Part shown: positions 296 through 62,993 of the stretch, in pieces
How positions within the stretch are numbered: the first letter of the stretch is position 1
Layout: each line of letters begins with the position of its first letter
Source of the DNA: a virus
Virus record (IMG/VR): IMGVR_UViG_3300045007_000107
Span: 37,702-101,701 of that record
DNA: 64,000 nt
Direction: 5' to 3' (one strand)
Program-made: the position numbers and the translations under genes
The notes under the pieces: generated by a model
Seen by the model: the letters and a program-made list of their open reading frames with translations, nothing else
The model's database searches: none
Told to the model about the DNA's origin: nothing

Positions 296-866
296 AGATT
301 GGACCCGGAGTAGTCTGTATAGACTATGTGGTATAGAAGTACCACATAAAGGAGATAGACGAGTATGTCGAGGATCAATGGAGTAGGTAGAAGTCGTGGA
401 TATCACCCGATAGAAGGAGGTGGGTTTGTCTACGTCCATATGTACAAAAAGCAATGGTGGTGGAGGGCTACTGACGAGAACAAGACCCCCGTGGGGCAGC
501 GTATGGGACCGTTCACTGATAGTGACGCCGCCGCTGCCGACGCCAATAGGAACGTGTAATACACGCTTGCATCCGTCTGCACGATCCGGTACGTATTACA
601 TCGGGTCGTGCGGACCCACGGAGATATGTTATGTTCAAAGTACAGACGAAAGAGTATTCGCTCGGGCGGCGTTGGCAGGACCTTAAGTCCTTTCACCGCA
701 ATCGCTTCGTGACCGAAGAAGATGCATGGGCCTACGTCGAGAGCCTGGATCAGGACGGTGTTCGTGACACGGGGAATTTTCGGGTAGTGCCCGCGTAACC
801 CCTTGCAGCCATCTGCACGCTCGCGTATTACAGCTACGGGGCGTGCGGCCCCACGGAGCAAAGACC

Positions 867-1175
867 ATGCGTCTCGCGATTGGTGAAAAGATCATTAAGT
901 CCTCGCGACCCAACCGCCACTTCGTGGCCCTGATCGAGGGCGGCGAGGGGGACAACCGTTACTACTACGTGCATACGAGTATGGCGGTCGTCCATGACGA
1001 GCCCATGGAGGACGACTACGACTGCGAGGATATCGTGGAGGCCGCCCGCGTTTACGAGCGCGAGGTCAAGGACCTGTCCAGTACTGGCAACCCACAGGCC
1101 CAGGCTGAATATGACGATGCACATGGTACCGTCAACGGTTACGCGCCGTGGCAGTACTCGGCCAGCGAATACTGA
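867..1175 (+). CDS. Hypothetical early protein
   Basis: ACGGAG RBS, GC3-biased codons. Confidence 0.7.
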   Translation: MRLAIGEKIIKSSRPNRHFVALIEGGEGDNRYYYVHTSMAVVHDEPMEDDYDCEDIVEAARVYEREVKDLSSTGNPQAQAEYDDAHGTVNGYAPWQYSASEY

Positions 1176-1191
1176 GGGGGAGTGTAATACA

Positions 1192-1467
1192 ATGTCTGGC
1201 AAGCCTTCCGCTCTCGGCTATAAGTTCCTGCGCGAGAACTTCCCCGAGTTCCCCCGCAGCCACTACGCTCGTACGCGGGCGTTCACTGGTAAGGACAATG
1301 GCCCGATCCCCAAGGATCAGCAGGGTGTGACCACCATGGGCGGGATCATCGTCCGCCTGTTCAAGGCTGATGGAGGCCGGCATCGCATCCACGCCGAGTG
1401 CCCCAAGTGCAGGAAGGACATCCCTGCGGGCCGTCTTCACCAGCATGTAGGGGTGTGCGAAGGCTAA
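1192..1467 (+). CDS. Hypothetical protein with C-terminal CxxC...H zinc-finger-like motif
   Basis: GAGGGGG RBS; CPKCRKDIPAGRLHQH. Confidence 0.7.
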   Translation: MSGKPSALGYKFLRENFPEFPRSHYARTRAFTGKDNGPIPKDQQGVTTMGGIIVRLFKADGGRHRIHAECPKCRKDIPAGRLHQHVGVCEG

Positions 1468-1541
1468 CCCTTGCAGCCGTCTGCACACGTGCTACCTTAG
1501 CCCCTGCCCCGTGCGGGGTTTCTTTTTGCGGAGCTACTGTT

Positions 1542-1865
1542 ATGACCCTTAAGGCTTACACCCACCTCTTCACTGATGGTCCGCAGCTTCCTTCTCTCCG
1601 CATCCCTATCCAGGATGAGATGGGCACCGCTTTCTTGGATGTCTGTGGTATCTCACTCTCGGACGCGGCGGATCAAATGGAGGATGGTACGACCATTCAA
1701 CACGCTATTGATATCGAGGATGGCACGGCCTCGGATACGTACGACGATCCGGCCTCGCTCGTGCGAGACATAGTAGGTAGGTCTTTCTCTAACCAAGCGG
1801 CGGGCGTCGTACTTAGCCGTGATGATCAGACGTACCTGCTCACGGTATACTATCTCGTCCCCTGA
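1542..1865 (+). CDS. Hypothetical protein
   Basis: GGAG RBS; followed by a terminator. Confidence 0.6.
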   Translation: MTLKAYTHLFTDGPQLPSLRIPIQDEMGTAFLDVCGISLSDAADQMEDGTTIQHAIDIEDGTASDTYDDPASLVRDIVGRSFSNQAAGVVLSRDDQTYLLTVYYLVP

Positions 1866-1870
1866 TGATT

Positions 1871-1894
1871 AGGCCCTTCGGGGCCTTTTCTTTT
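1871..1894 (+). terminator. Rho-independent terminator
   Basis: AGGCCC-TTCG-GGGCCT hairpin followed by TTTTCTTTT. Confidence 0.8.
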
Positions 1895-2060
1895 GTCTAA
1901 ATAGTAAATGACTATGTGATGAATGTAGTAGGAGGAGTTGTTCGAACAGTAAATGGCTATGTGCGCGCGTGGAGTAGGGGAAGAAGGAATAGTAATAGTA
2001 AAAGTGTATGTGCAAGTCAAAGATGGTGGAGAAGGATAAGAAGTAGATCCAGTTGTTGTT

Positions 2061-2295
2061 CAGGAGTAACATGTTGTAAGACAGTCACGTGTAGTCGAGG
2101 AGTAACATGTAGTATGGCTGTCACATGTAGTATTGGAGTAACATGTTGTCGCCGAGTACCACTGTTGTCGTGGAGTAACGTTGTTCCCGTGTCACATGTG
2201 GCTCAGGAGTAACGTGTTGTAATACGAGTACATGTTGTAGGGAAAGTACACCGAGGTGGTGGAGTAACATGTGGCCGAGGAGTAACGTGTTGCGC
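2061..2295. repeat. Imperfect tandem array, ~18-bp period (GGAGTAACATGTTGT alternating with GTCACATGTAGT)
   Basis: GGAGTAAC at 2063, 2099, 2135, 2172, 2206, 2261, 2279, with related half-units in between. Confidence 0.85.
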
Positions 2296-2627
2296 CCGAG
2301 ACACTAGGTGGAGCGGCAGTTCCCCCGGCGTCACCTCCCCGTCCTGCGGGCGAGCGTTGCCACTCCGCCCCGGCGTCGTCTCGGCCGCGCCCTAGCGCGC
2401 CACTCGGTTAAGCCGTTATGCCTCGGTCCCTCTCCTGCTCCGGTCCTTACGTATTACAGCCCCTTGCAGCCGGCTGCAAGCGGAAAAACGCGTCAACCCC
2501 TAAAAATCGTACGCCCCTCGTTTCGCCTCATCCGTTGCCGTATTACATCTTGCCTTCGCCTGCGGCGTTAACTACTCGTTTACTTGCGACTGCTACAACT
2601 CTACTTGCCTACAACGGAGCTTTACCA

Positions 2628-7431: not shown

Positions 7432-7713
7432 ATGTTCAGCCTTAGAGATCCGCTCGTGCGGCGGCGTATCTTCATCTGCGCGTTCACCACGACAGACACC
7501 GTGGATGGGTCCATGCTTCACTTAAAAACTGTTCGGGCCGACAACCCGGCACAGGCCACCGGCATCATCATGTCGTGGGTGTGGAGCCACAACGGCCACC
7601 ACAACATGTTTCGCCTAATCGAGTGGCGGGAACAGTCGAACATGTCCATCGATCAGAACGCGTATTACGGTGATCCCGCAATCGTGGAGCCGAAAAGTGC
7701 CGAAGCAAATTAG
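7432..7713 (+). CDS. Hypothetical protein
   Basis: ACGGAGC RBS. Confidence 0.6.
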   Translation: MFSLRDPLVRRRIFICAFTTTDTVDGSMLHLKTVRADNPAQATGIIMSWVWSHNGHHNMFRLIEWREQSNMSIDQNAYYGDPAIVEPKSAEAN

Positions 7714-8803
7714 GACCAAGTGGCACGACTTTCTGGACTGTTACCGCAAGGGGCAGATCCAGCTAAATATCGGCGGCGGCAAGTTCCGCTCCCCCTCCCG
7801 GTTCAAGAACTGGAACCAGAGTCCGCTCGACACCGTTCTTGCCGAGATCACCCTGCATCCCGAGGTGGTTCAGCACTTCGTCTTCGAGGATGATGCGCGC
7901 CCGTTCATCGTCTCGAAGCAAGCGATTGACACCATCGAGGTGCTCAAGCGGTTCAACAAATACCGTCTGCCGGCACCGATCTGTCTGGCCGAATTCCAGA
8001 CAACCGATAGGTTCATGCGGGCGTTTGTTCTCTGCTACGAGAACGACTACGTGTCGAAGCATCGGCCACTTCAACCAGCGAGGTCGCAGTACCCGTTCAG
8101 TGTTGTATGCTTTGGGCTGTTAGACATCGCGGCGGCCTACGAAAAATCCAGCCTCAAGGAAAAGCTGGCGGACGATGGCACGCCGATGCGCCCGATTTAC
8201 GACCAGTGTGCAGTGATCTACCCCGTACGCGCGCACATGGAGAATGTGCCCGGTACCTACGAGTTCGATGACGCGCTCGACCGCTTCGGCAATGCCGACG
8301 AGATCACCTACGAGAAGCGGGAGATTGGCGGGGTCACGTACTCGATGGAACCGGTGCCCTGGATCGACATGAGCCGTGCCGAGTACGAGCGCGAAGAGGT
8401 CAACATCAACCACGTACACGGCACCTTCGTGAGCATTGGCGGATACGCGATCCGCGCGCTGACCGTCATGCTCAACACCAAGGGTATCGGGCGCGAGCGG
8501 ATCGCGGATGCAGACATCTGCAAGCTCAACAAGCGGCGCAATGCCAAGCGCATCCCGACAATCCCGGCCCATGTCTACATCCATATCGCCTCGTACACGA
8601 ACAGGAAGGGGGCACAGGTCCTGGTGGGGGATCGAGGGAAGACCGGGCGCAAGCAACGGTTCCACATGCGCAGCGCGCACGTCAAGCAACAGCCCTATGG
8701 GCCGGGCAAGTCGTTGCGCAAGGAAATCATGGTCGATAGCTATCTCGTCAACGAGGACGAGGGCGGCGATCTCTACAACCCCGTAAGAGTGGTGACAGCC
8801 TGA
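7697..8803 (+). CDS. Hypothetical phage protein with basic C-terminal HxRxxH...YGPG motif
   Basis: Long ORF with GC3 bias; RFHMRSAHVKQQPYGPG. Confidence 0.75.
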   Translation: MPKQIRTKWHDFLDCYRKGQIQLNIGGGKFRSPSRFKNWNQSPLDTVLAEITLHPEVVQHFVFEDDARPFIVSKQAIDTIEVLKRFNKYRLPAPICLAEFQTTDRFMRAFVLCYENDYVSKHRPLQPARSQYPFSVVCFGLLDIAAAYEKSSLKEKLADDGTPMRPIYDQCAVIYPVRAHMENVPGTYEFDDALDRFGNADEITYEKREIGGVTYSMEPVPWIDMSRAEYEREEVNINHVHGTFVSIGGYAIRALTVMLNTKGIGRERIADADICKLNKRRNAKRIPTIPAHVYIHIASYTNRKGAQVLVGDRGKTGRKQRFHMRSAHVKQQPYGPGKSLRKEIMVDSYLVNEDEGGDLYNPVRVVTA

Positions 8804-23781: not shown

Positions 23782-23784
23782 GTG

Positions 23785-48600: not shown

Positions 48601-51600
48601 GCCAACGCTATTGTACAAGTCGCTAACCAGTACCTTACACCGGAAGGAGAGTACCGTAATTACACCATTACCCCGGATGCGACCTATGAGCTGTCGGCTT
48701 ACCTCTCTACGCATCGCTGCTCGGGCCATCTGGTTGCTGTCGCTATTGACGATAATGGCAATACTGTAGGCGAATGGCACTCGAACCACATCGTTTATCG
48801 CGATAATTGGCGAGGTTCTTACGAGGATTTCCCGAGAGGGAAGGTTGTTTTCACCGTACCCTCCACCGCTCGGTTATTGCACGTGGTCGTTAGGCTCGTA
48901 GACCCTACCGGACCGGACCCTTACGTCTTTGTTTCGGCGTTGATGCTCGCGTCCAGTGTAGCAGGTCGGACAGTTGAGGACGTGAGCCCCTACGTAGCCC
49001 CTGGTCTGACCACGATTGACGGCGGGAATATCTACACGAACTCGCTTCACGCTAACAAGATCATCGCGGATAGCATCACGGCGCGCGAGATCCACGCGGA
49101 CGCTATCGAGACTAGGCATATCAAGGCCGGCGCGATTGAGACCTCGCACATGGATGCGGGTTCGATCAACGCCGATATCTTGGTTTCGGGTAGTGTCAAA
49201 GCCTTGCAGCTATCTGCAAGCGCTGTGACTGCGTCCAAGCTCGGCATCGTGTCGAGCAACATGGCGTACAACCCTGACTTCTCGCAGGGCACGCGCGGCT
49301 GGGTTCATCGCGGTGGCGATTTGCCCGGTATCCAGCCGCAGTACGTCGAACGCAATATGTACGCCCCGGACGGTCATGCTTCCATTGTCCTGTTCGCATC
49401 CGTGACTGCTGCTAACGCGGCGGGGAAATACTACGATATCGGCACGTATCGTATTAGTGCTAACGAGGCTACTGAGACGTATCGAGTGACGCCCGACGTA
49501 TGTTACGAGTTCTCGTGCTGTGTCTCGACGCACCGCTGTGCTGCGCAGCTATTTGTGCAATGGTTCGACGCCAACGGGAACCATATTGCCTTCACGGGCA
49601 CAGACCCGAGTGTGTCGGATACGCAGGTTAATCGCGGGACCTACGCCGACTACCCGAAGCTGAAACATATCGTGTGGGCTCCCGCCGGAGCGGCCACAGC
49701 CGCTCCGTTCGTCCGCATGATGAATGTAATCGCGGACACGCCCTACGTATTCATCTCGTGTTTCATGATGGCGGCAACCCGTAAGGATGCGGCAGAGACA
49801 AGCCCCTACGTCGTGCCGGGCGTTACCACGATTGACGGCTCGGGTATCATCACGAACTCGTTGGAGGCTGGTAAGATCACAGCCGGGACGATCACGACCC
49901 GTGAACTTAATGTCACCAACATCTTCGCCGACACGGCGGTCATCAGCAACATCTCCGCGAAGGTCTTGGTCACGGATGCGATCAAGACCGATATGATTAA
50001 GGCGGGACAGATTACGGGCAGTAAACTCCTGATTGCCTCGGCCAATATGGCGTACAACCCGGATTTCTCGCAAGGTTTGCGCGGTTGGTACGCCTATTAC
50101 GGTCAGTATGCTGCGAGTGAGGTTGTCGAGTTTGGCATCAACACCGATTGGTGCCCGACCGGTTTCAAGGCCGCCATGGTTCGCACAACGCGCACGGGGC
50201 CACAGCCTGACACCCGCTTCGGGTTACAGCAGGGTCTTGTACGGGCGGACGGTTCCTTGGGCGACTACCCGGTTATAGCGGGTTCTACCTACGAGTTCTC
50301 GGCATTCATGTCGAACCACCGCTGTGAGGCGTGGATCTACGTTGACTTCGTGTCTAGGAATGCCAACGGTACATCCAACTATCTGCAAACCTCTATCGGT
50401 ACGCTGCCGAACGGATCGGGCGGGGGTGCGGGCGGCGACCCGGCGACCTATCCGCGCATTCGTCTCGTCGCAAAGGCACCTGCCGGGGCAACGTATGCCA
50501 TCGTCTACTTCATGGGTAATAATCCCTCTGGACCAGACGTGCCTTACCTCTTCGTCTCGGGCTTCATGATGGCGGCCTGCCGGGAGGGGATGCCGGCGGC
50601 CGAGACCAGTCCCTATGTCGCGCCGGGCATCACATCCATCGATGGTAGCACGATCATAACGAACACGATCAAGGCACGGCATATCGAGGCGGGCTCGATC
50701 AATACCGGGCACATGACGGCCAATACCATCGACGCCAAGGTACTGACGAGCGGCTCCATCGTGGCTGGCAAGCTCGCTGCGGATGCGGTCGAGGCGATCA
50801 ACATTAAGGCTGATGCGATCACGGCCTCGAAGCTGTACCTGACCGATCTGTCCAACATGGTGCAGAACGGGGACTTCCTCGACGGCACTTCCGAGGGTTG
50901 GTGGCTCTACGGTGATGGACATATCAACACCAGCGGTACTCCGGGTGAGCCTGGGGGTAAATGGCGCTGCGTTGGGTCAAGCGAATACGTTATCGCCCGT
51001 TCGAGCAAGTGGGTCCAGGTGAACCCTGGCGACGTACTCTACGCTTCGGTGATGGTATTTAACAACAAGCCCGGATCAGGTGCTGCGGGCCTCTACTTCG
51101 AAATGTATAATCAGGAGGATGGCGACGGGCAAGGCTCGCACATCTACACGAACCAGCACTTCGGTTGGGTGCGTGTCGAGGGCCGGGTTACCGTCCCTGC
51201 CGGTCGGCAGAAGGTTCGTGTCTGTCTCTTCGCAGACTACCCGGACCCCGGTCAGTACACGTACTTCGGCAAGGTTCAGGTGCGCCGTGCTAACAGCGCC
51301 GAGATGATCGTTGACGGTGCGATCACCGCCAACAAGATCGAGGCAAGAGCGATCAAGTCCGGGCATATCGATACGGATACGATCAACGCAGGCCATATCA
51401 CCACGGGCGCCATCGGCACGGATGAGCTTGCCGCAGGGGCGATCACAGCCGACAAGATCGCGGTCGGCCTCAACACCGGCAACCTGATCTGGAACTCTGA
51501 CTTTGCTCTAAATGGCTTCTGGCAGGGGCCTGCCACCTCTCCGGGCTACACGGATATCCAAGTTTACCGTGACACAACTTGGCACATCTCGGGCACCGAG

Positions 51601-53484
51601 GCGTCTATTGCAATCCACCATCCGACTTCCATCGGGGCTGGTCAGTACGCTTACATCGATCTAACACATCCGCAGGCCGACGGCACTATGTACTCGCATC
51701 TGCGCGTCCAGGGAGGTAAGCTCTACGAGTTCTCGGTTTACCTCTCTGCGCACCGCTGTGCAGGCTACGCTCAGGCATTCTGGTGGAGTGCCGAGAACGG
51801 TTACGCTGATGCCGGCACAACGAACGTAATCAACTATGTTGCTGGTAATGGCGCTCCTGCCGATAACTGGCGCGCAAAACTGAAGACGCGCGCGCCAGCT
51901 TGGGCTACGCATATTCTGTTGCGCATCTTCATGGGGCCGGGCACGGACAACTCTGCCCCTTACGTGTTTGCGTCTGGCCTCTACCTTGGTCTGGTGCCGG
52001 AAGGTCTGCCCAGCAACGTCTTTTCCGACTATGCACCGCAGTCGCGCACGATCATCTCGGGCGGGTCCATCGCGACCAACTCTCTCGACGCGTCCAAGAT
52101 CGTGTCGAAATCAATCACGACAGATCACATCAAGGCTGCAAGCCTCGACATCAATAACATTGCCGTGGATGGTACGATCTCGGCACATAAGCTCTCGTCC
52201 GACGTGCTGATAGCTGACCGTATCCGGGTATGGGGTGACTACACTCTTGCCGGCTGGCGCAGCGGTACAGAGATTGCTGGCGGCGTCATCGCCTCTAACA
52301 CGATCAGGGCACAGAGCCTTTTGATCGGTTCGCGACCGATGACGGTCGTCGGCTTGAACTTCGAGATGCAGGTCGATGGCAATGGTAACAAGACCGGCTG
52401 GATGACGTGGACCGGTGGATACCTTTCTATCATCGGTGACGGCGGCGAGAACGCAGGTTTCAACATCAACGCAGGTTCGATCTATACCAACTTCCAGGAG
52501 ACACACATCTGGTGGAACCGAGGTTGGGCCGACCTCGCGGGTCGAGTGGGTGGCTCCGATGCCCCTGTCGGCGCCGAGAAAATCGCCATGGCCTACTGGT
52601 CGCCTTCATCCGGCCTAGCCGTGCTCAAGGGCGGTACTAACATTGATGGCGATAAGATTACGACCCGCTCGATTAAAGCCGCCAAGATCGGTGTGGCCGA
52701 AATCCAGACCGATCACATGGGTTTTAACTCGATCCACGGCAACCGGATCGTAGTAGGAACTCTTGAAGCCGACCGGATTACGTCGGGCGTTATCCAGGCC
52801 GGTACTATCCAGCTTGGCACCACTGGTAGATTTCAGTTGCAAGCCGATGGCCGCCGTATGCGGATCTATGGCAACAACTGGTCCGAGCAGGTCTGTATCG
52901 GTGACATCTCGCCGTGGGTGACGGGTCAGGAGAGCCAGAACTACTTTGGCATCATCGTCCGCAACCAGGATAACCGGGAGATATTTAAGGTCGGCGGTGA
53001 CGTTGCCTGGATTGACGGCGCCTTCATCAGCCAGGCTTCGATTGGTGCAGCGCAGATCGGGGACCTACAGGTCAAGAACGCCCACATCGATAACCTGACT
53101 ATCGGTAATGGTAAAATCTCTGACTACGCCATCTCTACCCTTACGGCTGCGTCGAGCGGAGGCACGTCCACTGACACATGGACCGCTGCGCGGACGGGTG
53201 CCTCAAAGTTCCTTATCCTGGCGTTGTTCAACGGTAATTCCAGTTCGGGCAGTTTGGCAGGGCCGGGTAACTTCATCATCTACCGGAATGGCACTCCGCT
53301 TATTAATGTCGCTGCGTCATTCGCTATCGTCAGGGTCGGTAGTGAGAACCAATTCTACCTGAACTCGATGTGTATTGGCTGCATCGACCAACCCGGTGCA
53401 GGTAGCGTAAACTACCAGTGCCTCCACACGAACGGTCAGGGTGTCGGTGGCGTTACCATCCTTGCCTTGGAGATGTCGAAATGA
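42697..53484 (+). CDS. Host-specificity protein J / central tail fibre, 3595 aa (FN3 domains plus six CBM-like modules)
   Basis: LIDLLSEGPVQG, VPSNYDP, WDGTFK.AWTDNPAW, RYGLG; repeated N.A.NPDFSQG..GW modules. Confidence 0.92.
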   Translation: MASNTRAPVQVSDNLKSKATMRLIDLLSEGPVQGFVNPFQSIKADGVPVQTPGGSFNITNCRISFRDGQPVQRPIPGFTDTENDRPVNKPVSTRSNSVGKVYVDNGGAGYTYANVTLVGGLGQPGKKDDGSPWVPTAGATAHAVISGGRIVDIVIDIPGENYITPPTVQISGDGTGASASAELTNTAFYRVEDPLADAVRVGVRTGPMQLTNDYGDVAGYYVSHRVEYRTQAAPRWRMAAFDSSFLPSNGGETLATTAIRKLVTVMVPARSSYTLRLFGSNMTTGRYDQQLKVVTGYNASDAPTLIYETITALDLEFGVWYSVVAADGNAPVEVLQDTYLNLVTPDVQINGKTSSGVGESYRFDIPTDQGWVDVRCIRTSTDDFTKYHTSSLIFDVCTEIQSSTMMYSDSAVVGWELDADYMNAVPKRTYDIYGRIVRVPSNYDPAARAYGPFWDGTFKYAWTDNPAWIFFDLLTHDRYGLGNWIDDSVIDKGALYLIAKHCDELVPGNEAGTFVPRWTFNKQIMTANEAYSVLNTMASVFKGMIYWSAGTIFATQDRPGPVRRTVSPSKVINGDISYVGVSAAAEHSVARVEYNDETREDGKGIEIYEDPELIEKLGYVPTDIVAFACTSRHEARRVGKWLIDSEKYANKVATFRAGWDFADVVPGDIVAIADPNYAGVRQGGRFVQTAASSVKLDAPYEFEAGQNYTLTAAIPTMGRVNAVRGNPTIQGNRTFWAHPIYGLKPDDLIIFGTDPKQYKVQTVNGNGQITLDQPYVGDQTRGVHWTVLRGSSFYQSSFVNLLEVPVNHPGAVTTDQITLSHPLPVVPQVGADWLLSASNVVPRQFRVQSVRPVDKGRFEIVALEHDPNKYLRVEQDIAILPPITTNIPDEPVQTPKNLDITESRFLRRNVSLQRITLSWEDGSVFSPASGYYISARLPDGTFEQLGFTSNLSFDYDEPAPGDYTFYVTALGTSGDYSQPAEKEYTAILWEGQAGPYITNLAVVGGYGPQAQFFQGRAPVIKWDVTFPADVPAYATESVIRIYDADTDALLRIVQTAASTYTYAFEDNYEDGGKRPRRKMRFSVTVKDVAGRESAPKVVIAYNPPPDAVDVELGSTSELLSITVTGTGDPDLAGYLIWVSQEPGINTYTTPPTLDITTQSALVRATPNATYYVRAAAYDVFGKDPAYLNASVEKSKKITIQIFDPEPPSIPGQPVLVSNTAEVSTDGVISSRIVFSWPAVTSTNLGYYEAYMAVGGNPSSDQYVGGLTTEGTEISVPGLMPGRVYSFVVRAHSKNGFAVSEPSPVLVVTAALNTTAPSAPTDFHVEPSFEAANLTWTNPPERDLRGIEVWVGTQEGDGTLFTEVPAPGSFFRYPMNGATTRAFWIRAINTSGTPSGWVGPISATSPLIQAAQLANEIIDDTKVAASLLINKTVNELPATKGSEQVTYQGKVYRWDAETGGYVPLIRTLDLSGVILAEQIDSVNKEAIAAALAESKIKTDQLDGKLAATQIAGQLTGDQIENLAITAAKFAQGLSPIQDVTALPDLATWNGASFVRLTVDGKLYRIVNGAWTKNVDISDTVGTVPENRLPDISASKLYGDLDQARIKTLEVSKLTGKMSADQQLELDAAKIAGQLTQATMGLAQVVGTVNGQLVNDQIAAGLNAAKVSGALDYAYLAAENLSTTIKTTNIADNAITTPLIKAGAVVAEHVAAQQITASKLLITDMSNMVLNGDFGGSAEVGSLEAWTLANGQISTSDDADLGGKHRFRTTARDAAFSNYIHCAEGDDIYASAMNWNASNYKVNLFIVFESDALSGAARYSFWQVASRDPQQNSWLKLEGRAKCPGGYNKFRVLLQSDREGNGDGTAVFWGKVTARRAASAQMIVDGAIIADKIDTNAVKARHITAGSVTASKMSIVSANMAFNPDMSQGTRGWRQTWEPNVPNGSALSVSNDYAPAGHKSLAIHGIGNLPANAIVQVANQYLTPEGEYRNYTITPDATYELSAYLSTHRCSGHLVAVAIDDNGNTVGEWHSNHIVYRDNWRGSYEDFPRGKVVFTVPSTARLLHVVVRLVDPTGPDPYVFVSALMLASSVAGRTVEDVSPYVAPGLTTIDGGNIYTNSLHANKIIADSITAREIHADAIETRHIKAGAIETSHMDAGSINADILVSGSVKALQLSASAVTASKLGIVSSNMAYNPDFSQGTRGWVHRGGDLPGIQPQYVERNMYAPDGHASIVLFASVTAANAAGKYYDIGTYRISANEATETYRVTPDVCYEFSCCVSTHRCAAQLFVQWFDANGNHIAFTGTDPSVSDTQVNRGTYADYPKLKHIVWAPAGAATAAPFVRMMNVIADTPYVFISCFMMAATRKDAAETSPYVVPGVTTIDGSGIITNSLEAGKITAGTITTRELNVTNIFADTAVISNISAKVLVTDAIKTDMIKAGQITGSKLLIASANMAYNPDFSQGLRGWYAYYGQYAASEVVEFGINTDWCPTGFKAAMVRTTRTGPQPDTRFGLQQGLVRADGSLGDYPVIAGSTYEFSAFMSNHRCEAWIYVDFVSRNANGTSNYLQTSIGTLPNGSGGGAGGDPATYPRIRLVAKAPAGATYAIVYFMGNNPSGPDVPYLFVSGFMMAACREGMPAAETSPYVAPGITSIDGSTIITNTIKARHIEAGSINTGHMTANTIDAKVLTSGSIVAGKLAADAVEAINIKADAITASKLYLTDLSNMVQNGDFLDGTSEGWWLYGDGHINTSGTPGEPGGKWRCVGSSEYVIARSSKWVQVNPGDVLYASVMVFNNKPGSGAAGLYFEMYNQEDGDGQGSHIYTNQHFGWVRVEGRVTVPAGRQKVRVCLFADYPDPGQYTYFGKVQVRRANSAEMIVDGAITANKIEARAIKSGHIDTDTINAGHITTGAIGTDELAAGAITADKIAVGLNTGNLIWNSDFALNGFWQGPATSPGYTDIQVYRDTTWHISGTEASIAIHHPTSIGAGQYAYIDLTHPQADGTMYSHLRVQGGKLYEFSVYLSAHRCAGYAQAFWWSAENGYADAGTTNVINYVAGNGAPADNWRAKLKTRAPAWATHILLRIFMGPGTDNSAPYVFASGLYLGLVPEGLPSNVFSDYAPQSRTIISGGSIATNSLDASKIVSKSITTDHIKAASLDINNIAVDGTISAHKLSSDVLIADRIRVWGDYTLAGWRSGTEIAGGVIASNTIRAQSLLIGSRPMTVVGLNFEMQVDGNGNKTGWMTWTGGYLSIIGDGGENAGFNINAGSIYTNFQETHIWWNRGWADLAGRVGGSDAPVGAEKIAMAYWSPSSGLAVLKGGTNIDGDKITTRSIKAAKIGVAEIQTDHMGFNSIHGNRIVVGTLEADRITSGVIQAGTIQLGTTGRFQLQADGRRMRIYGNNWSEQVCIGDISPWVTGQESQNYFGIIVRNQDNREIFKVGGDVAWIDGAFISQASIGAAQIGDLQVKNAHIDNLTIGNGKISDYAISTLTAASSGGTSTDTWTAARTGASKFLILALFNGNSSSGSLAGPGNFIIYRNGTPLINVAASFAIVRVGSENQFYLNSMCIGCIDQPGAGSVNYQCLHTNGQGVGGVTILALEMSK

Positions 53485-54334
53485 TGTTTTCTGCGTCAAC
53501 ACTCCCGCCTGACGGTAACGGGGAGGTGGTGCCCGAGGACGAACTCGTTAGCGTCGCCTTCGTCTCTTACGATGAGGACGGGCGGATCACCGCAACACGT
53601 CAAGAAGCTGTGTATTTTCTAGTCAAGCGTTACGAGGCCGGGGAGCGGGTAGCAAAGGGGGAGGCCGATGGTCTCACCCACTACGTCGTAAACGAAAAGA
53701 TCACGCTTCGTCCTGCGATACCGGGCGGCTGGGATACGACTACTCTAGCCCCCGGTGATACGGCTACGTGGGAGGGGCTACCTGCCTGTAAGGTAGAGAT
53801 CAGCGGCCCTATCGGGGATATCGTACACGAGCACGAGGGCGGGGACTTGCAGCTATCGTTCCTAGTCCCCGGATCGTACAATATCCTCGTGGAACCGTGG
53901 CCCCATCCGATAAGCCGCACCACGTTGGAGGTAACGGAATGAAATCCCCGGTTATCATTGGTCCTTCACTGGACGACCTTAAGCTACGGGCGCGGGAGCT
54001 AGTAATGGAGCACTTCGTCTCCCGTGCCGAACAGGATCTTGTGCCGCCTACCATGCGCGCCAAGTACGTGCAAAAGCTTACGGAGGCGACGACCTACCTA
54101 CGCGATGGTACGGAGTCCGATTTACTTAAGCGTGAGGCTGAGATACGGGGCATACCCATCGCAGCCCTCGCCACCATGATCACTCAGATGGGCGTACCGT
54201 CAGACGATATGGAGCTAGATCGCACTCGCGCTAACCTAGCTATTGACGGTGCGAACGATCACTCGGGTGTCTTGGTCGTCCTACGTAACCTCGGCATTAA
54301 GTACAGGGCGCGCCCCGATCCGAATAAACTTTAG
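53481..54334 (+). other. Two tail-fibre-associated genes (53481-53942, 53939-54334)
   Basis: ATGA coupling after J; second is chaperone-like (EAEIRGIP..ALA). Confidence 0.6.
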
Positions 54335-54436
54335 AGCCCTACTAAAAATACCAGCAAAGTAGCAAGTACCCCCAGGGTCGTCATATACTATGGCGACCTT
54401 TTTCTTTGCAGCCGTCTGCAAGCTAGGAACCGACTG

Positions 54437-55316: not shown

Positions 55317-55610
55317 ATGACGCCCGAGATTATCGCCGGCATCCTAGGTTACGGGGGACCAGGGTTAGTCATCCTGATCCTTCTTCTCGTTGCGAAGCGG
55401 CTTTTCGATCTGCTGACCGAGGAGCAAAAGGCGCACCGCATCACTGCCGTCACGGCGGCAGAGAACTCGCACAAGTTCGCGGACGCGCTAGAGAACACGA
55501 ACGACATCATTAAAAATACCAATGAGAAGATCGACAAAGGTAATGAAAAAATAGACGCATTGGGTGGCATGATCCGCGACCGGCTTCCAGCTAAGTCGGG
55601 AGGTTCTTGA
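55317..55610 (+). CDS. Holin/antiholin-like single-TM protein
   Basis: N-terminal TM plus coiled coil, right after the endolysin. Confidence 0.55.
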   Translation: MTPEIIAGILGYGGPGLVILILLLVAKRLFDLLTEEQKAHRITAVTAAENSHKFADALENTNDIIKNTNEKIDKGNEKIDALGGMIRDRLPAKSGGS

Positions 55611-55786
55611 TGAGGCATATAATGCAGAAGCTTGCCTCGTTCTTCCACTTGCTGTTCCACGGCAACCCGGAAGGACCACAGCTTCATGAGGAGTTGCAGC
55701 GGGCACGCGCCCGCCAGGATGCGGCTGAGCGTGACCTACGCCACACAATGGAAGCGTTAACCAGCCCCAGGGGTCCGCAGCGATGA
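55610..55786 (+). CDS. 58-aa hypothetical protein
   Basis: TGATG and ATGA coupling at both ends. Confidence 0.5.
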   Translation: MRHIMQKLASFFHLLFHGNPEGPQLHEELQRARARQDAAERDLRHTMEALTSPRGPQR

Positions 55787-56307
55787 ATTTGTTTAGGCGT
55801 ATGATCAGGACCGATGGTAGTGCGATCCCCATCGTAGCCCTGTTACTAATGCTGCTGTATGGCCTACTCTGCCTTATCACGGACAATCAAGTCCTGATGT
55901 TAGGGCTGCACGTCACCCGTATCCTGATCGCGGTAGCGGTCATCATCACCTACTATCCGCACTGGTACAGCGCCTTTCATGCGGAACGCCTAGGCAAGGT
56001 CGATCAACTCGCCCTCGGCGTTTTCGTCACGTGGATGGCGGTGTTCTTCCATGCCTGTTACAGTCTCGCGTGGCGGGCGCTCGGCAACCCCGATTGGATG
56101 GTGCAGAGCGATATGATGGGTATCCCGTACTTCATCGCGATGATGGGCGGCACCCTGCATATCACGGCCATGCGGACGGAAAAGGGCACGGTGCCGATGG
56201 CGAACGTGACGATGGTTATGGTCGCATTCATCACCGGCATTCTCGCGGGCATGGCGGGTGCGTATTACGGGGAGATCCTGCAAAACTTGGAGAACCTCGC
56301 GCACTGA
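55783..56307 (+). CDS. Multi-TM membrane protein in the lysis cassette
   Basis: About five hydrophobic segments. Confidence 0.7.
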   Translation: MNLFRRMIRTDGSAIPIVALLLMLLYGLLCLITDNQVLMLGLHVTRILIAVAVIITYYPHWYSAFHAERLGKVDQLALGVFVTWMAVFFHACYSLAWRALGNPDWMVQSDMMGIPYFIAMMGGTLHITAMRTEKGTVPMANVTMVMVAFITGILAGMAGAYYGEILQNLENLAH

Positions 56308-58307: not shown

Positions 58308-58336
58308 TTGACAAAAATCTCACATATCCATAGTAT
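58308..58336 (+). promoter_or_regulatory. Sigma70-like promoter upstream of the AAA+ operon
   Basis: TTGACA-N17-TAGTAT. Confidence 0.65.
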
Positions 58337-58496
58337 GTCTCTGCCGTGGCAATGGCAGCGAATGAACAACGGGGCGTCAGCGATGACGCTCCGTTTTCTT
58401 TTGCCCGAAAGACCTATACGAGATTATTTTATTGCGCTAAGACAGGTGCTCGTATACTCTACGCTTGCGCATAGCGCGTTTGCCACGGAGCACCAC

Positions 58497-60242
58497 ATGC
58501 CTGTAATGTCATCGGAAGCCGCGCGCACTGTGCGCAACGCGGAAACATTCGTCAAGGATTTCGACCATCGTTCGGCCGCTGGCGTCGCCGTCTTTATCGT
58601 GCGGACGCGCGAAATCCTCCGCACGCAGCACACGTTGCAGGACTACGCCATCCAAGAGGGGATGGACTTCAAATCCTGGCAGTGCAACACCGGCATCGCG
58701 AACTACCCCGCTGTGCGGCCCGATCAGCCCATGGACGACAACGGGCGAAAGCCGTCGAACTTCGTGACCAGCCCGGCGACGTTCGGCATCGACAAAGCGT
58801 TGGAGTATTGCAGCGCCCAGCTAAGCGGCGAAGTGCTGATCACCTTCACCCACGCCCACGGCAAGCTCGACAACAACGTGATCCAGCAGTGGATCAATGA
58901 TCTCGCGTTCAAGGGCATGACTAGCGCGCACCAGCGCTTCGTGTTCCTCGTGCCGCTCGACTACGTGCCGCCGCCTGAGATCGAGGAAAGCATCTATCTC
59001 ATGGACTTCCTGGCTCCCTCGCACGCGGAGCTTCGGGACAGCTACAACGACGTGCTCGCGAGTATCCGCGAGGGTGAGGCGCCGGAATTTTCCGAGGCGG
59101 AAATCAACAACCTCATCCAGAACGGCCTCGGCATGACCAGCCAAGAATTCGGCACCGCCGTATCGCTGGCCTCGGTTACCTTGCATCCGTCTGCACGCGG
59201 CGAGGACGCCCCGCCTCCCACCGTCGATGACTTTATCAAAATCGTTCTCGACCAAAAGGTCCAGATCATCCGCAAGACCAACATCCTTAAGCTCATGCCG
59301 TCCGTCAGGATGGACGAGGTCGGCGGCCTCGATCTTCTCAAGAAGTGGATCGGGGATCGTGCGGTCGGCTTCACCGAGGAAGCCAAGACTTTCGGCGTCG
59401 AAGCGCCCAAGGGCGTGCTCACGGTCGGCCCGCCCGGTACGGGTAAGTCGCTGCTCGCCAAGGCGGTCGCGTCGGTGTTCCAGCTACCGCTCGTCATCAT
59501 GGACATCAGCGCGGTATTCGACCGGTTCGTCGGCAACTCCGAGGGCAAGATGCGTTCGGCCCTGGCGCTGATCGACGCGATGGCGCCGTGTGTGCTGCTC
59601 GTGGACGAAGTGGACAAGGGTTTCGCGGGAGCCTCCGGTGGCGGCGGTGGCGGCGACGGCGGTATCACCCAGCGCGTGTTCGGTACGTTCCTCACGTGGA
59701 TGCAGGAGCGCAAGAACGACGAGAAGCCCGTCTTCACCGTCATGACCGCGAACAACATCCTCGGTCTGCCGCCCGAACTCATGCGTAAGGGTCGTATCGA
59801 TGAAATCTTCTCCGTCAGCTTCCCGTCCGCGTTGGAAGCGGCCGAAATCCTCAAGATCCACTTGAACAAGCGCGGTCACGAGGATACTCTGACGGACGGT
59901 GAAATTCGCGAGGTCGTGACAAGCTGTCACAACTTCGTCGGCGCCGAACTCGAAGCTATCGTCAAAGACGGTCTGTACACCGCCTTCAACAGCCCGCAGG
60001 GCGAACTCACGAAGGAAATCCTGATCAATCAGGCCAAAGCACTCAAGCCTATGTCGGTCACGTTCGCGGATCGTATCCGGGTGCTGGACGATTGGGCCAA
60101 GAACAACACCAAGCCCGCATCAAGCGGCCAGACCTTCACCACGGACGACGAGGCCAAGCCGGCCGCTACCGGTGGGTTGCAGCGTCGCCTTCTCCGTCCC
60201 CGCACCAAGGCGGCGGCCCCCGGCCGTACCATGGACAACTAA
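58497..60242 (+). CDS. Ycf46-like AAA+ ATPase
   Basis: VGGLDLLKKW, GPPGTGKSLLAKA, LLVDEVDKGF, FGTFLTWMQE, TAN..LPPELMRKGRIDEIF. Confidence 0.88.
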   Translation: MPVMSSEAARTVRNAETFVKDFDHRSAAGVAVFIVRTREILRTQHTLQDYAIQEGMDFKSWQCNTGIANYPAVRPDQPMDDNGRKPSNFVTSPATFGIDKALEYCSAQLSGEVLITFTHAHGKLDNNVIQQWINDLAFKGMTSAHQRFVFLVPLDYVPPPEIEESIYLMDFLAPSHAELRDSYNDVLASIREGEAPEFSEAEINNLIQNGLGMTSQEFGTAVSLASVTLHPSARGEDAPPPTVDDFIKIVLDQKVQIIRKTNILKLMPSVRMDEVGGLDLLKKWIGDRAVGFTEEAKTFGVEAPKGVLTVGPPGTGKSLLAKAVASVFQLPLVIMDISAVFDRFVGNSEGKMRSALALIDAMAPCVLLVDEVDKGFAGASGGGGGGDGGITQRVFGTFLTWMQERKNDEKPVFTVMTANNILGLPPELMRKGRIDEIFSVSFPSALEAAEILKIHLNKRGHEDTLTDGEIREVVTSCHNFVGAELEAIVKDGLYTAFNSPQGELTKEILINQAKALKPMSVTFADRIRVLDDWAKNNTKPASSGQTFTTDDEAKPAATGGLQRRLLRPRTKAAAPGRTMDN

Positions 60243-61257: not shown

Positions 61258-61274
61258 GTACGGAGCATACGAAT

Positions 61275-61721
61275 ATGTCCCACAACGTGCAAATCTCGGG
61301 CGTCAAGATCGCGAACATGGATGCGCTGCGCTCGGCCATCGATGAGCTTCGCACGGGCGGCGTCGATATCTCGCTCGATCAGTGCGGCACCTTCCGCACC
61401 TATCGGGGTCAGCCGAACCGGGCCGAGTACACGATCCACCTGCCGCGCGAGACCTACGACATCGGCCTCAACCGGACGCCCGAGGGTCACTACGCCCCGG
61501 TGTTCGACCACGACCTGATCCGCAACGGATCGGTGGCCTGCGCTTGGGAGCCGGGCGAGCGTCCGTCCGCCGACGACCGCGTGGCCGGCGCCATCGGCAA
61601 GGTCATGCAGATGTATTCGGTGCATCTCATGGAGCGTGAGGCGGCCATGAAGGGCTACTCCACCCGCCGCGAAAGCGCCGAGAACGGCGCCGTCGAGGTC
61701 GTCGTGGACATGGCGGCCTAA
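61275..61721 (+). CDS. DUF1257 / Ycf35-like protein
   Basis: MSH...I...DAL..A..EL, YDIG, Y..V.D, QMYS......A..KGY. Confidence 0.8.
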   Translation: MSHNVQISGVKIANMDALRSAIDELRTGGVDISLDQCGTFRTYRGQPNRAEYTIHLPRETYDIGLNRTPEGHYAPVFDHDLIRNGSVACAWEPGERPSADDRVAGAIGKVMQMYSVHLMEREAAMKGYSTRRESAENGAVEVVVDMAA

Positions 61722-61787
61722 CATAACCCGGCGCGGGCTCTAGGGTCCGCGTCACCCTGATCCCCAGCCAACGCACACGAGGACAAC

Positions 61788-61988
61788 ATGGCCGAAATTC
61801 GCATCACCATCGACAAGATCGGCAAAGTCAAGATGGACGCCGAAGGGTTCACGGGCGAAGCCTGCCGCGACGCGACCGGTTCCTTCGAACAGGCGCTCGC
61901 CGGCGTCGAGGTCCAGCGCGACCTCAAGTCCGAATACTACGACACGCCGGCCGAGAGCGGCGTCGATGCCGAGAACATGCGGATGTAA
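61788..61988 (+). CDS. DUF2997-like protein
   Basis: I.I.IDKIGKV...EGFTGEAC...T..FEQAL.....R.LK.EYY. Confidence 0.82.
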   Translation: MAEIRITIDKIGKVKMDAEGFTGEACRDATGSFEQALAGVEVQRDLKSEYYDTPAESGVDAENMRM

Positions 61989-62015
61989 CTTGCAGCCGTC
62001 TGCAAGCGCGTAACC

Positions 62016-62045
62016 AGGGCGGGGGCTTCGGCTTCCGCCCTTTTT
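62016..62045 (+). terminator. Rho-independent terminator
   Basis: AGGGCGGGGGC-TTCG-GCTTCCGCCCT-TTTT. Confidence 0.8.
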
Positions 62046-62472
62046 GTATCCGTGTGAGGTTCCGATGCTCCCCTACAGCAAGATCATCATCATGGCGGTC
62101 ACGATGGAACCGGCATCCCTGGTCGCGGTTCTGGCCGCCCTCGATGCACTCCACATCAAGGACGACAGTAAGGCGTCCGCCCGCTATTCAACGGCTGTGC
62201 GCCGGGGTATCATATTCTGCTAACCCGGAGGACCACATGCCCCGTATCGTCACCCAAGACGGCACCGTCATCCGCACCGATCCCGGCGCCCCTACAGCCT
62301 CGGAACCCTTCGGGGCCGGCTACCGGTCCCCGGACCTGCCGCCGCCCGCCAGCGATGCGGAAAACCCCGTTAATAACGGGTACCGTTGGATGCATCGGAT
62401 CAGCGATCCTCCCGTAACCCCCGACTGCGAGTGCCCGCTCTGCAAGCTCGGTTTTCCACTGAGGCTCGGCTA

Positions 62473-62811
62473 ATGACGAAACTCGTTTATCGCATCGACG
62501 CGAACGGCAATGTCGAGGGTCTGCTCAAGGACACGGCTATCGACAGTCGGATCTTTGCGGGCCGTCGCGAGATCCACCGCATCACTCTGATTGAGCATGA
62601 TCCCGACGAACAGAAATTTCACATCCAGTGGCTCGCCGGTCCGTTTAAGGGTCAGTACCACGACAATGTGATCGATGCGTCGATCTTCGACCGTCCCACC
62701 GAAGGCGACCCGCTTAAGGACATGCTGTTCGACACTTACGAGGAAGCGGTCGAGCACGAGATCCGGTGCGTCAACGCGCTGCGGCACAAGGGCGAGAACT
62801 TCAAGCTCTGA
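62473..62811 (+). CDS. Hypothetical protein, likely companion of the DUF1257/DUF2997/AAA module
   Basis: YRIDANGNV..L...I.R...IE......F....EA..HE pattern. Confidence 0.6.
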   Translation: MTKLVYRIDANGNVEGLLKDTAIDSRIFAGRREIHRITLIEHDPDEQKFHIQWLAGPFKGQYHDNVIDASIFDRPTEGDPLKDMLFDTYEEAVEHEIRCVNALRHKGENFKL

Positions 62812-62835
62812 TACACACCCGAAACAAACTGTGGC

Positions 62836-62860
62836 AGGCGGGATACACTCCCGCCTTTTT
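62836..62860 (+). terminator. Rho-independent terminator
   Basis: AGGCGGGA...TCCCGCCT-TTTT. Confidence 0.75.
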
Positions 62861-62993
62861 CGTACTTGACAGCCCTCTTGCAGCCGTCTGCAACTACTAC
62901 TTTGGAGGTACTACTACGTTGACAAAGAAACTACACTTGGGTTAAACTTAAGAGGTACTTCCCTATACTAATGATCCCTACCAAGGCGAAGTA

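Follow-up and report, generated by a model that had tools for sequence, protein, structure and literature searches.

The window, a stretch of 64 kb (64,000 nucleotides), was part of the 101,701-bp contig of a ~102-kb lake-water phage. It carried a short near-palindrome dispersed over almost its whole length, together with the genes listed below, among which the probable small terminase subunit gene overlapped the start of the gene for the large subunit.

568-62892, no strand assigned: lattice of 41 near-palindromes TGCA-N6-TGCA (motif counts, spacing nulls and codon tests)
Lattice site starts 1-14: 568, 804, 1472, 2465, 2975, 4823, 5373, 6668, 8509, 10091, 11189, 11933, 12871, 14058
Lattice site starts 15-28: 14686, 16057, 17719, 19484, 21632, 22826, 24666, 26525, 28245, 30733, 32066, 33839, 36047, 37406
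Lattice site starts 29-41: 38894, 39848, 41931, 44756, 45854, 49205, 54407, 56316, 57484, 59182, 60707, 61991, 62879
16143-17774, plus strand: glycosyltransferase-like (GT) protein, 543 aa, its gene immediately preceding that of the ParB-like protein
17917-18780, plus strand: orphan protein of the ParB/Noc/KorB class, 287 aa (Pfam, profile and fold)
18845-19387, plus strand: probable small terminase subunit (TerS), 180 aa, with an N-terminal HTH-like segment and a central LQKxRL heptad region
19384-21510, plus strand: large terminase subunit (TerL), 708 aa, homologous to RcTiptonus gp25 and JP1_009
23233-23781, plus strand: Cys-rich paralogue A, 182 aa, CxxC-x10-C-x4-CPxWxFRxGxNP
23782-24174, plus strand: Cys-rich paralogue B, 130 aa, a predicted partner of A via the Cys-rich domains
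45868-54406, plus strand: stretch without canonical sites in the site scan, its sole copy being a two-mismatch site at 49205

A recount of TGCA-N6-TGCA gave the same 41 dispersed copies as the preliminary description, the first starting at 568 and the last ending at 62892; 37 of the 41 were within one mismatch of TGCAGCCGTCTGCA, compared with 0.07 expected from dinucleotide shuffles. The lattice extended upstream of the window, and the whole contig held 68 TGCA-N6-TGCA sites, with 62 sites at no more than one mismatch; with any other spacer length between 0 and 12, TGCA pairs occurred 0–5 times. Gaps in the window averaged 1558 bp; of the 40, one fell below 500 bp, where random placement would give 11.0, which reproduces the earlier values (about 1.56 kb, and 1 against about 11). 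The evenness held for the contig, where one gap was below 500 bp compared with 14–16 expected and none of 5000 simulations was as extreme under three null models, two of which kept gene boundaries. Including its flanks, the dyad reached 18 bp (c-K-TGCAG CCGT CTGCA-M-g), with symmetry broken at a single position pair, 6/9. This asymmetric centre was hetero in 43 of 48 sites (23.7 expected, P=4.5e-9), and site orientation was skewed 44:13 (P=5e-5), or 21:5 for intergenic sites. The stem sequence was identical across 60 copies, beyond mere pairing; the commonest variant, CCGT to CCAT, altered the CpG, and the central CG was kept in many variants. Sites were located between stop codon and terminator, in 5' leaders and in protein linkers and termini, many of them 3–36 nt past a stop codon and directly ahead of a terminator. 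The site-free stretch corresponded mainly to the distal two-thirds of a 3595-aa tail gene, a part without homologue in relatives and with a GC3 of 0.68–0.72 compared with 0.79–0.83 upstream, and is probably a recently gained module in which sites have yet to arise.

A rough gene map placed 24 sites of the window in genes and 17 outside them, which upheld the mixture reported earlier but not its exact split of 22 genic and 19 intergenic. Genic sites numbered 36, whereas sequences with shuffled synonymous codons had 1.0 on average, and genes with internal sites included those for TMP, J, TerL and the ATPase. All 23 of 23 (L/V)QPSA or (L/V)QTAA peptides were spelled by the motif, and the codons TTG, TCT and GCA each made up 9–11% of their own codon family. 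Both the rarity of these codons and selection on the DNA, as previously suggested, were thereby borne out. Sites overwrote existing codons without indels (for example, VQTAA here and VSATA in relatives), so that they originated by substitution rather than insertion, and the phage alters its own proteins to accommodate them.

The motif was also traced to related phages. Ten lattice genomes were found, six of them cultured phages, with 18–68 TGCA pairs at a spacing of exactly 6 compared with 0–7 at other spacings, and with an even spread. Lattice phages formed a wide group of 87–101 kb, with hosts in Rhodobacter, Agrobacterium, Rhizobium, Stenotrophomonas, Pseudomonas and Vibrio, and carried one near-palindrome of 14–18 bp every ~1.5–3 kb. 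Site centres varied among them (GCCGTC, GGTACC, GGAACC, AACGTT, ATCGAT, ATCAAT), and positions were mostly not conserved between this phage and RcTiptonus. DLP5 had 31 sites TGCAA-N4-TTGCA (P=0.0025), the JP1 site was perfectly symmetric, the centre dinucleotide was free in G005, G004 had sites of the type ATAAC-N2/3-GTTAT with a variable spacer, and L182/L112-type sites carried one mismatch within the would-be stem. Hetero half-sites were also in excess in Pseudomonas phage SM1; orientation bias was not seen in SM1 and G006. The lattice-less relative G003 contained ~8 palindromes of the same type, 45–60 bp apart in one 700-bp array, in an ORF-poor, repeat-rich region resembling a plasmid centromere. 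Two Arthrobacter phages had 0–1 TGCA-N6-TGCA, and a dispersed palindrome was not found in them. The lattice is thus spread through the lineage as a trait with drifting spelling; a purpose for such a lattice was not described in the literature searched.

Searches of prokaryote genomes (596 Gb, 185,579 species genomes) returned 60 matches to the 18-mer compared with ~70 expected by chance, with never more than one per stretch and no relation among the taxa. The view that selection acts on the DNA, that a phage-encoded, sequence-specific reader would recognise the sites, and that their density and spacing may be constrained draws indirect support from the codon tests, the motif's absence from cellular genomes, the drifting lineage-wide spelling and the turnover of positions.

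The ParB-like protein consisted of a ParB_N domain (Pfam, E 2.6e-9), a helical region and a conserved C-terminal domain. Profile comparison against the PDB matched it to Noc, ParB and KorB (E 3e-17 to 1e-11; KorB, E 1e-11), and the AF2 model (pLDDT 82) had Noc, KorB and ParB as top Foldseek matches; 7nfu and 7ol9 (Noc) were the top matches, with 8qa8 and 8qa9 (KorB) also among them. ParA and integrase were looked for in this phage and neither was found, making the protein an orphan like Noc. Known Noc, KorB and ParB binding sites are palindromes of 13–16 bp. The protein was present in eight of the nine other lattice genomes, the only non-enzyme protein to reach that number, and was retained by G003. 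The explanation we favour, with about an even chance of being correct, is that the sites would constitute a phage-encoded docking set for a sequence-specific dimeric protein, most likely the ParB-like one. The preliminary description had put forward the ParB-domain protein as best candidate, and for this the Noc/ParB/KorB fold and the G003 array speak in favour but the CTP boxes do not, being non-canonical (GHHR for GERR, RRN-LR for ENLQR). The co-occurrence of protein and lattice, good in the eight genomes, broke down in the Arthrobacter phages, which have the GT-ParB module without lattice, and in SM1, which has a full lattice and only a generic ParB_N protein matching the family over columns 24–113 alone. 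Also against a ParB-like reader are the variable spacer of G004 and the putative recognition helix, which was near-identical in this phage and L179 although their site centres differ. A simple symmetric dimer accounts neither for a centre that is conserved and asymmetric nor for the skew in orientation. Overall, the earlier interpretation is partly supported.

The asymmetric centre and the orientation bias, overall and between genes, would be accommodated if sites were read single-stranded as hairpins, in mRNA or in ssDNA during replication or packaging, with a stem formed by the TGCAG/CTGCA arms, which the flanks extend to as much as 7 bp, and CCGT as a specific tetraloop; since all genes are co-oriented, every site is transcribed. 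Tolerance of a 2- or 3-nt spacer in G004 and the many sites between stop codon and terminator are consistent with this, as is a gp32-like SSB, one of the few genes common to lattice phages of the alpha-proteobacterial clade (alpha-clade) and SM1 and missing from G003, but this SSB was undetectable in DLP5, KarBoss and TM16. We consider hairpin recognition unlikely, given that the stem letters are invariant beyond what pairing demands, that G005 has a free centre dinucleotide, that SM1 and G006 lack orientation bias, that L182/L112-type sites have a stem-internal mismatch, and that a rare-codon hairpin at the 36 in-ORF sites would hinder translation.

Recognition by a heterodimer of the Cys-rich paralogues, whose pseudo-symmetry would suit a near-palindrome with one asymmetric position pair and fit the excess of hetero half-sites in this phage and SM1, seems to us quite improbable. 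Both paralogues were found in every alpha-clade lattice locus reaching that far, including JP1, with one copy in SM1, and were absent from the lattice-less G003, L194 and Arthrobacter phages. The model of the A/B complex scored 0.92 (best control 0.00), a mark that 58 of 80 solved complexes but just 2 of 110 mismatched pairs attained, with contacts agreeing by at least 94% between runs and a partner pLDDT of at least 81; as no solved relative exists, the model is unlikely to have passed by reproducing a known structure. However, JP1 has both paralogues and a perfectly symmetric site, and TGCA-N6-TGCA lattices occur in DLP5, RcZahn, KarBoss and TM16, in which the domain was undetected by a profile that finds SM1. 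The family is very large (9113 representative clusters), so the domain is not lattice-specific, and a search for folds or families that would tie it to DNA binding found none. The pair had tracked the lattice perfectly at first, a correlation broken by the four lattice phages without it. A priming-helper role for the Cys-rich proteins was unsupported because every primase, that of G003 included, has its own zinc motif.

Little probability attaches to the sites being places of site-specific DNA modification or nicking by the GT-ParB module, analogous to phage pathways of ParB-activated thymine dioxygenase and glycosyltransferase. The gene pair is conserved from proteobacterial phages to the two Arthrobacter phages, and the retention of the central CG in many variants, with the commonest variant hitting the CpG, would agree with modification. 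ParB-dependent T-dioxygenases exist, and the commonest neighbours of phage 5mYOX genes are GTs, ParBs and terminases, but the ParB described there is without a DNA-binding domain and its enzymes have a specificity of 2–3 nt (PMC13229309). A search of this phage and four relatives (E up to 1) turned up no TET/JBP-type dioxygenase, and ParB and TerL are separated by a TerS-like gene rather than one for an oxygenase. The lattice occurs without GT in SM1 and the module without lattice in the Arthrobacter phages, and a modification target by itself explains neither enrichment nor even spacing.

A role of the sites as ordinary operators of transcription or as promoter elements, whether in a stoperator-like repressor system or as an early-promoter -35 box, is very doubtful, even though KorB, the nearest analogue, is a repressor and the G003 sites are in an ORF-poor, repeat-rich region. 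Overlap with a promoter (for example, TTGCAG-N16-TATTAT) or a place just downstream of -10 was seen for a few early-region sites, but a -10-like hexamer at 16–18 nt accompanied only 4 of 62 sites (1.3 expected). Signs of lysogeny are absent from RcF phages (PMC8601537), and a transcriptional role of the Cluster O 17-bp repeat was judged unlikely by its authors (PMC4351075). In this phage, integrase is absent, 36 sites lie within genes (those for TMP, J, TerL and the ATPase among them), their placement with respect to promoters and terminators is not uniform, positions turn over among relatives and spacing is even.

That the motif is a host genomic repeat, DNA uptake sequence or other host-factor site acquired by the phage, the last raised in the preliminary description, is almost certainly wrong: despite a DUS-like density and even spacing and the presence of GCCGTCTG, as in Neisseriaceae DUS, with the likeness of GCCGTCTGCA to GCCGTCTGAA the sole resemblance behind it, it is contradicted by the chance-level count in cellular genomes and by relatives on other hosts that spell the TGCA-N6-TGCA frame differently. 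The DUS, promoter, mobile-element and T-dioxygenase readings were all rejected or unsupported.

Among published cases, the repeat of Cluster O mycobacteriophages (Corndog) comes closest, a 17-bp dyad TGTTCGG-N3-CCGAACA to which its authors assigned no function (PMC4351075). As here, dozens of dyad copies with an A/T-asymmetric centre occur genome-wide in a lytic-looking phage, at intergenic, 5'-proximal and mid-gene positions, and are absent from host genomes. Unlike here, the 34 Corndog sites are uneven, with several pairs <100 bp apart and a dense right-end run with gaps of ~130–700 bp; positions are mostly conserved across five near-identical Cluster O genomes, spelling, spacer and hosts differ, and the Cys-rich domain is absent. 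Among ParB-family proteins, KorB binds 12 OB operators (13-bp palindromes) dispersed over the IncP plasmid RK2 and acts at a distance. The candidate resembles it by profile and fold, and both systems have palindromes across a whole mobile replicon, but the phage has 41–68 sites, many intragenic and evenly spaced, no ParA/IncC partner and non-canonical CTP boxes. Noc of Bacillus subtilis has ~70 NBS, 14-bp palindromes at one per ~60 kb, and tethers DNA to the membrane; it is likewise an orphan ParB paralogue without ParA, with dispersed chromosome-marking palindromes, and the best sequence and fold match, but acts on a cellular chromosome at far lower site density than the phage's 1.5–3 kb per site. 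Stoperators of Cluster A mycobacteriophages, 13 bp long and asymmetric, are oriented with transcription and serve as binding sites for the immunity repressor of these temperate phages. They share with the lattice dispersed phage-encoded sites (20–35), some intragenic, and spelling that co-varies with the phage's binding protein; the phage site, in contrast, is near-palindromic, a minority are near promoters, and no integrase or immunity system was found. DUS/USS and Chi are over-represented short host words read by host machinery. Regular density, position turnover, in-gene tolerance in preferred frames and orientation bias are common to these and the lattice, whose motif is, however, palindromic, non-cellular and spelled differently per phage.

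Under the favoured explanation, docking of a ParB-like dimer, selection would hold about one site per 1.5–3 kb over the entire chromosome, and new sites would arise through point substitutions at places where the genome can accommodate them. Sites would be lost and regained, their spelling shifting jointly with the reader among related phages. If the protein behaved like KorB, Noc and ParB, its dimers could load at every site and spread ~1 kb. The place of the ParB-like gene within the GT-ParB-TerS-TerL block hints at a connection with packaging or the handling of DNA, and spreading from sites at this interval would mark or organise the whole phage chromosome.

Bases 37,702-101,701 of a single virus contig of 101,701 bp (GC content about 0.59, nearly all genes on the + strand) make up the window. 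The phage is distantly related to RcTiptonus and RcDurkin, siphophages of Rhodobacter capsulatus of ~94 kb, and to phages infecting Rhizobium and Agrobacterium; the public runs containing it are lake-water metagenomes. A recount of TGCA-N6-TGCA near-palindromes in the window gave exactly the numbers of the preliminary description: 41 copies between positions 568 and 62892, a mean gap of 1558 bp and a single gap below 500 bp among 40, compared with 11 expected. Within one mismatch of TGCAGCCGTCTGCA, 37 copies were found in the window against 0.07 expected from shuffled sequence. The whole contig contained 62 sites within one mismatch of TGCAGCCGTCTGCA and 68 TGCA pairs separated by exactly six bases, whereas each of the other spacings from 0 to 12 occurred 0-5 times. 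The dyad is prolonged by its flanks, c-(T/G)-TGCAG-CCGT-CTGCA-(A/C)-g, and a single position pair (C6/T9) breaks the palindrome. Even spacing, as previously claimed, was borne out by a gap-distribution test on the contig, with one gap below 500 bp and 14-16 expected under three null models, including one with sites placed at gene boundaries (0/5000 simulations). Logan contigs of four lake-water metagenome runs carried sequence identical to the phage and showed neither variants nor read ends or joints where the sites lie. A scan of IMG/VR with the bare 14-mer returned only chance-level singletons among the matches listed.

The distribution of the sites relative to genes indicated selection on the DNA word itself. 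Twenty-five of the 62 sites are intergenic, compared with about 12% of the DNA being non-coding, and most of these lie 3-36 bp past a stop codon. Within genes, 28 of 36 sites are placed in one reading frame, encoding (L/V)QPSA or, when inverted, (L/V)QTAA; all 23 occurrences of these peptides in the proteome are encoded by the codons of the motif, although TTG, TCT and GCA account for only 9-11% of their respective codon families. Shuffling of synonymous codons left about one genic site compared with the 36 observed, upholding the earlier proposal of rare codons retained through selection at the DNA level. In well-aligned orthologues (TMP, J, helicase and ATPase) the site stands in place of existing codons and no indel is present, so that sites appear to arise by substitution rather than by insertion of a cassette; a mobile palindromic mini-element (REP- or MITE-like) was rejected since aligned orthologues bore no insertion signature. 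One long stretch without canonical sites (45868-54406) falls mainly in the distal two-thirds of the gene for a 3595-aa tail protein. No homologue of this distal part (45700-53484) was present in the closest relatives, and its GC3 is about 0.1 below that of the conserved N-terminal third, which suggests a recently exchanged receptor-binding module and fits recent acquisition, with sites not yet gained. The lattice is real, strongly non-random and selected at the DNA level.

Related phages, in which the preliminary description had proposed to look for the motif, also carry lattices, each with its own spelling and most within the same TGCA-N6-TGCA frame. In ten genomes, TGCA pairs exactly 6 bases apart numbered 18-68, compared with 0-7 pairs at any other spacing, and short gaps were rarer than expected by chance.

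Site motifs in related phages and IMG/VR genomes
RcTiptonus: T(G/A)CAATCGATTGCA; 52 sites, CV 0.48
Agrobacterium phage JP1: TTGCAAACGTTTGCAA
IMG/VR genome G005: TGCAGG-NN-CCTGCA; centre left free
IMG/VR genome G006: TGCAGGAACCTGCA
IMG/VR genome G004: ATAAC-N2/3-GTTAT; spacer of 2 or 3 nt
Many IMG/VR fragments: various motif spellings
Pseudomonas phage SM1: 30 sites; 0 with the reversed-pattern control
Stenotrophomonas phage DLP5: TGCAATCAATTGCA
RcZahn, Vibrio phage KarBoss and Rhizobium phage TM16: weaker site sets

Most site positions are not conserved between RcTiptonus and the present phage, indicating that the lattice is maintained by turnover under a constraint on density and spacing. The motif is not mentioned in the paper on the RcF phages (PMC8601537), and no literature on it was found for JP1 or the Samunavirus phages. 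The lattice is a conserved trait, apparently not described before, of a broad phage clade with cultured members.

A complete relative, the IMG/VR genome G003, retains the ParB-like protein and has no lattice; its nine TGCAA-N4-TTGCA sites are all inside 10 kb. About eight palindromes of the (C)TGCAA-N4-TTGCA type, some with a CCGCAA left arm, lie 45-60 bp apart in an ORF-poor, repeat-rich array of ~700 bp (L241:15380-16080, corresponding to G003 55,380-56,080) and are followed by TTGCCGTTTA direct repeats. Judged by its sequence, this array looks like a plasmid centromere, an iteron cluster or an origin. The Ycf46-like AAA+ ATPase (58308-60242) belongs to a set of just ten proteins that could be detected in G003 as well as in each of the nine other lattice genomes, the rest of the set being replication, recombination, packaging and capsid proteins. 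The close relative G005 carries a provirus flag and, at its extreme edge, a tyrosine integrase (L245:130-528), and a Bradyrhizobium contig of 296 kb is the recorded source of a ParB of the identical family (protein P0011); the clade otherwise looks lytic, but some of its members may thus reside in cells.

The following genes bear on the protein that would recognise the sites (hereafter the reader).

Window 17917-18780: ParB_N protein of 287 aa, in a conserved block of glycosyltransferase, ParB, TerS-like and TerL genes
Window 16143-18780, L261:18514-20771 and L262:18289-20723 (the latter two being Arthrobacter phage loci): glycosyltransferase-ParB-like pair, conserved from proteobacterial to Arthrobacter phages
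Window 23233-23781: Cys-rich paralogue A
Window 23782-24174: Cys-rich paralogue B, adjacent to A

The ParB-like protein contains the Pfam ParB/Srx N-terminal domain PF02195 (E 2.6e-9, above cut-off), and the profile of its family matched Noc, ParB, Spo0J and KorB with E values of 3e-17 to 1e-11. Both the profile and an AlphaFold model matched Noc, KorB and chromosomal ParB across the N-terminal and the next helical domain. Profile matches reached position 151 and Foldseek aligned 190-230 columns to Noc and KorB at TM 0.4-0.55, with no match to a helix-turn-helix Pfam family. The putative recognition helix of the family does not track the centre of the site, any co-variation being inseparable from phylogeny. 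Canonical ParB proteins bind CTP through the boxes GERRxRA and ENLQR; here the boxes are non-canonical, S-G-H-H-R-x-K-A-A and (R)RN-x-LRG, in which the final Arg of box II and the box III Asn are retained. Cognate sites of the ParB/Noc/KorB class are palindromes of 13-16 bp, and the replicon that carries the ParB-like gene bears a near-palindrome of 14-18 bp in 68 copies, a candidate cognate site; the array in G003 is a cluster of sites of this type. AAA_31/ParA gave no match above cut-off in five genomes, which fits an orphan protein of the Noc type and not a partition system, and no integrase was found except at the edge of the provirus-flagged G005; a role in partition or lysogeny was rejected on these grounds.

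The preliminary description had favoured the ParB-domain protein as reader and proposed to examine its co-occurrence with the motif. In part this stood: among proteins that are not enzymes, it alone could be detected in eight of the nine other lattice genomes, and it has the ParB/Noc/KorB fold. Co-occurrence broke down in the Arthrobacter phages DanielleIgnace and KellEzio, which have homologues of both the glycosyltransferase (23% identity, E 5e-19) and ParB (34-39%) and no TGCA-N6-TGCA lattice, and in SM1, which has a full lattice yet only a generic ParB_N protein. The ParB/KorB-like protein is nonetheless the best candidate reader and may well be the right one. A more tentative proposal is that a broad clade of virulent phages tiles the entire chromosome with evenly placed loading sites for an orphan ParB-like protein, forming a phage 'chromatin' or self-mark that might organise or shield the DNA or pass it on, for instance to the adjacently encoded packaging motor, with spelling and reader co-evolving fast from phage to phage.

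Some properties of the sites are not explained by a symmetric dimer. One GCC half-site is paired with one GAC half-site in 43 of 48 sites compared with 23.7 expected (P=4.5e-9), an excess also seen in SM1; site orientation is skewed 44:13, or 21:5 for intergenic sites alone; and G004 tolerates a spacer of 2 or 3 nt. These asymmetries would fit recognition of the site in the form of a hairpin in RNA or single-stranded DNA, a reading that we consider rather unlikely: the centre is free in G005, orientation is unbiased in SM1 and G006, and each primase is equipped with a zinc motif of its own. The last observation also led us to reject the sites as priming signals, the C..H..CxxC motif being present in all primases including that of G003. 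In the DnaG-type primase upstream of the window (L175:7584-8672, corresponding to contig 7584-8672) the N-terminal C-x6-H...C-x2-C is kept in all relatives and is missed by Pfam zinc-finger models. Separate short hairpins in which a GC stem carries an invariant GTGCG loop (e.g. ggggc-GTGCG-gcccc) were observed in the window at ~600-640, 850-870 and 1505-1530, and upstream of it at contig ~25,190-25,240, 26,000-26,040 and 29,690-29,710; they are flanked by early promoter-like sequences on one side and a GGAG ribosome-binding site on the other, and often lie directly 3' of a palindrome site.

Cys-rich paralogues A and B were present in all lattice loci of the alpha-proteobacterial clade and in SM1, and absent from G003 and L194, which have no lattice, and from the Arthrobacter phages. 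A model of the A/B complex scored 0.92 (best control 0.00), with runs agreeing on at least 94% of contacts and partner pLDDT of at least 81; the score mark for such models was attained by 58 of the 80 complexes with a solved structure and by 2 of the 110 mismatched pairs. The two are predicted to heterodimerise via their Cys-rich domains. This domain (CxxC-x10-C-x4-CPLWxFRMGxNP) marks small phage proteins of a very large family, which comprises 9113 representative clusters at E <=0.001, some with tandem double copies; it had no match in Pfam, PHROG or PDB or by fold, and its atlas matches were hypothetical proteins only. The phyletic match in the alpha clade, SM1 and G003 fails in DLP5, RcZahn, KarBoss and TM16, which have sites and no detected Cys-rich domain; the pair therefore cannot be the general reader and was rejected as determinant of the lattice.

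The neighbourhood of the ParB-like gene is suggestive of ParB-dependent thymine-dioxygenase hypermodification with a glycosyltransferase, in which a 5mYOX (TET/JBP) gene lies beside ParB, and divergent 5mYOXs may escape the PF12851 model (PMC13229309). This pathway was rejected, as PF12851 had no match at E <=1 in five genomes, no dioxygenase was detectable and the neighbouring 180-aa protein is TerS-like. A promoter, -35 box or operator was likewise rejected: a -10-like hexamer lies at the right distance in only 4 of 62 sites (1.3 expected), and site geometry relative to promoters and terminators varies. Stoperators of Cluster A mycobacteriophages are asymmetric sites that follow the direction of transcription and are recognised by a temperate phage's immunity repressor, whereas the present site is near-palindromic, no integrase was found and promoter geometry is limited to those four sites. 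The motif core resembles the Neisseriaceae uptake sequence; such DUS/USS elements occur in hundreds to thousands of copies per host genome, whereas the 18-mer had only 60 matches in 596 Gb of 185,579 species genomes, all single and in unrelated taxa as expected by chance, ruling out both a Neisseria-type DUS and the host repeat against which the preliminary description had cautioned.

For the ParB-like protein as reader, KorB with its OB sites on RK2 and Noc with its NBS would, by analogy, be the closest mechanistic models; the present phage differs in site density, sites within coding sequence, even spacing, non-canonical CTP boxes and the lack of a partner ATPase. Among published cases, the 17-bp dyad repeat of Cluster O mycobacteriophages comes closest; a role in transcription was considered unlikely by its authors (PMC4351075). 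Both involve tens of copies of a dyad word, intergenic and genic, that is absent from the host, but on our recount the sites of the Cluster O phage Corndog are clustered whereas those of the present phage are evenly spaced.

To keep one word per 1.5-3 kb, the phage spells its terminase, portal, tape-measure and tail proteins using rare codons, which is a real cost, and some genome-wide process must read that word. Since the trait spans phages of at least six host genera, including the easily grown RcTiptonus, JP1, DLP5, SM1, RcZahn and KarBoss, reader and purpose are now within reach at the bench. An answer would moreover account for the Cluster O repeat, a puzzle for a decade, and, for phage engineering and therapy, reveal 'silent' positions that should not be recoded; it might uncover a novel role for the ParB fold, or else a DNA-reading protein of a new kind, in organising, protecting or packaging a viral chromosome.
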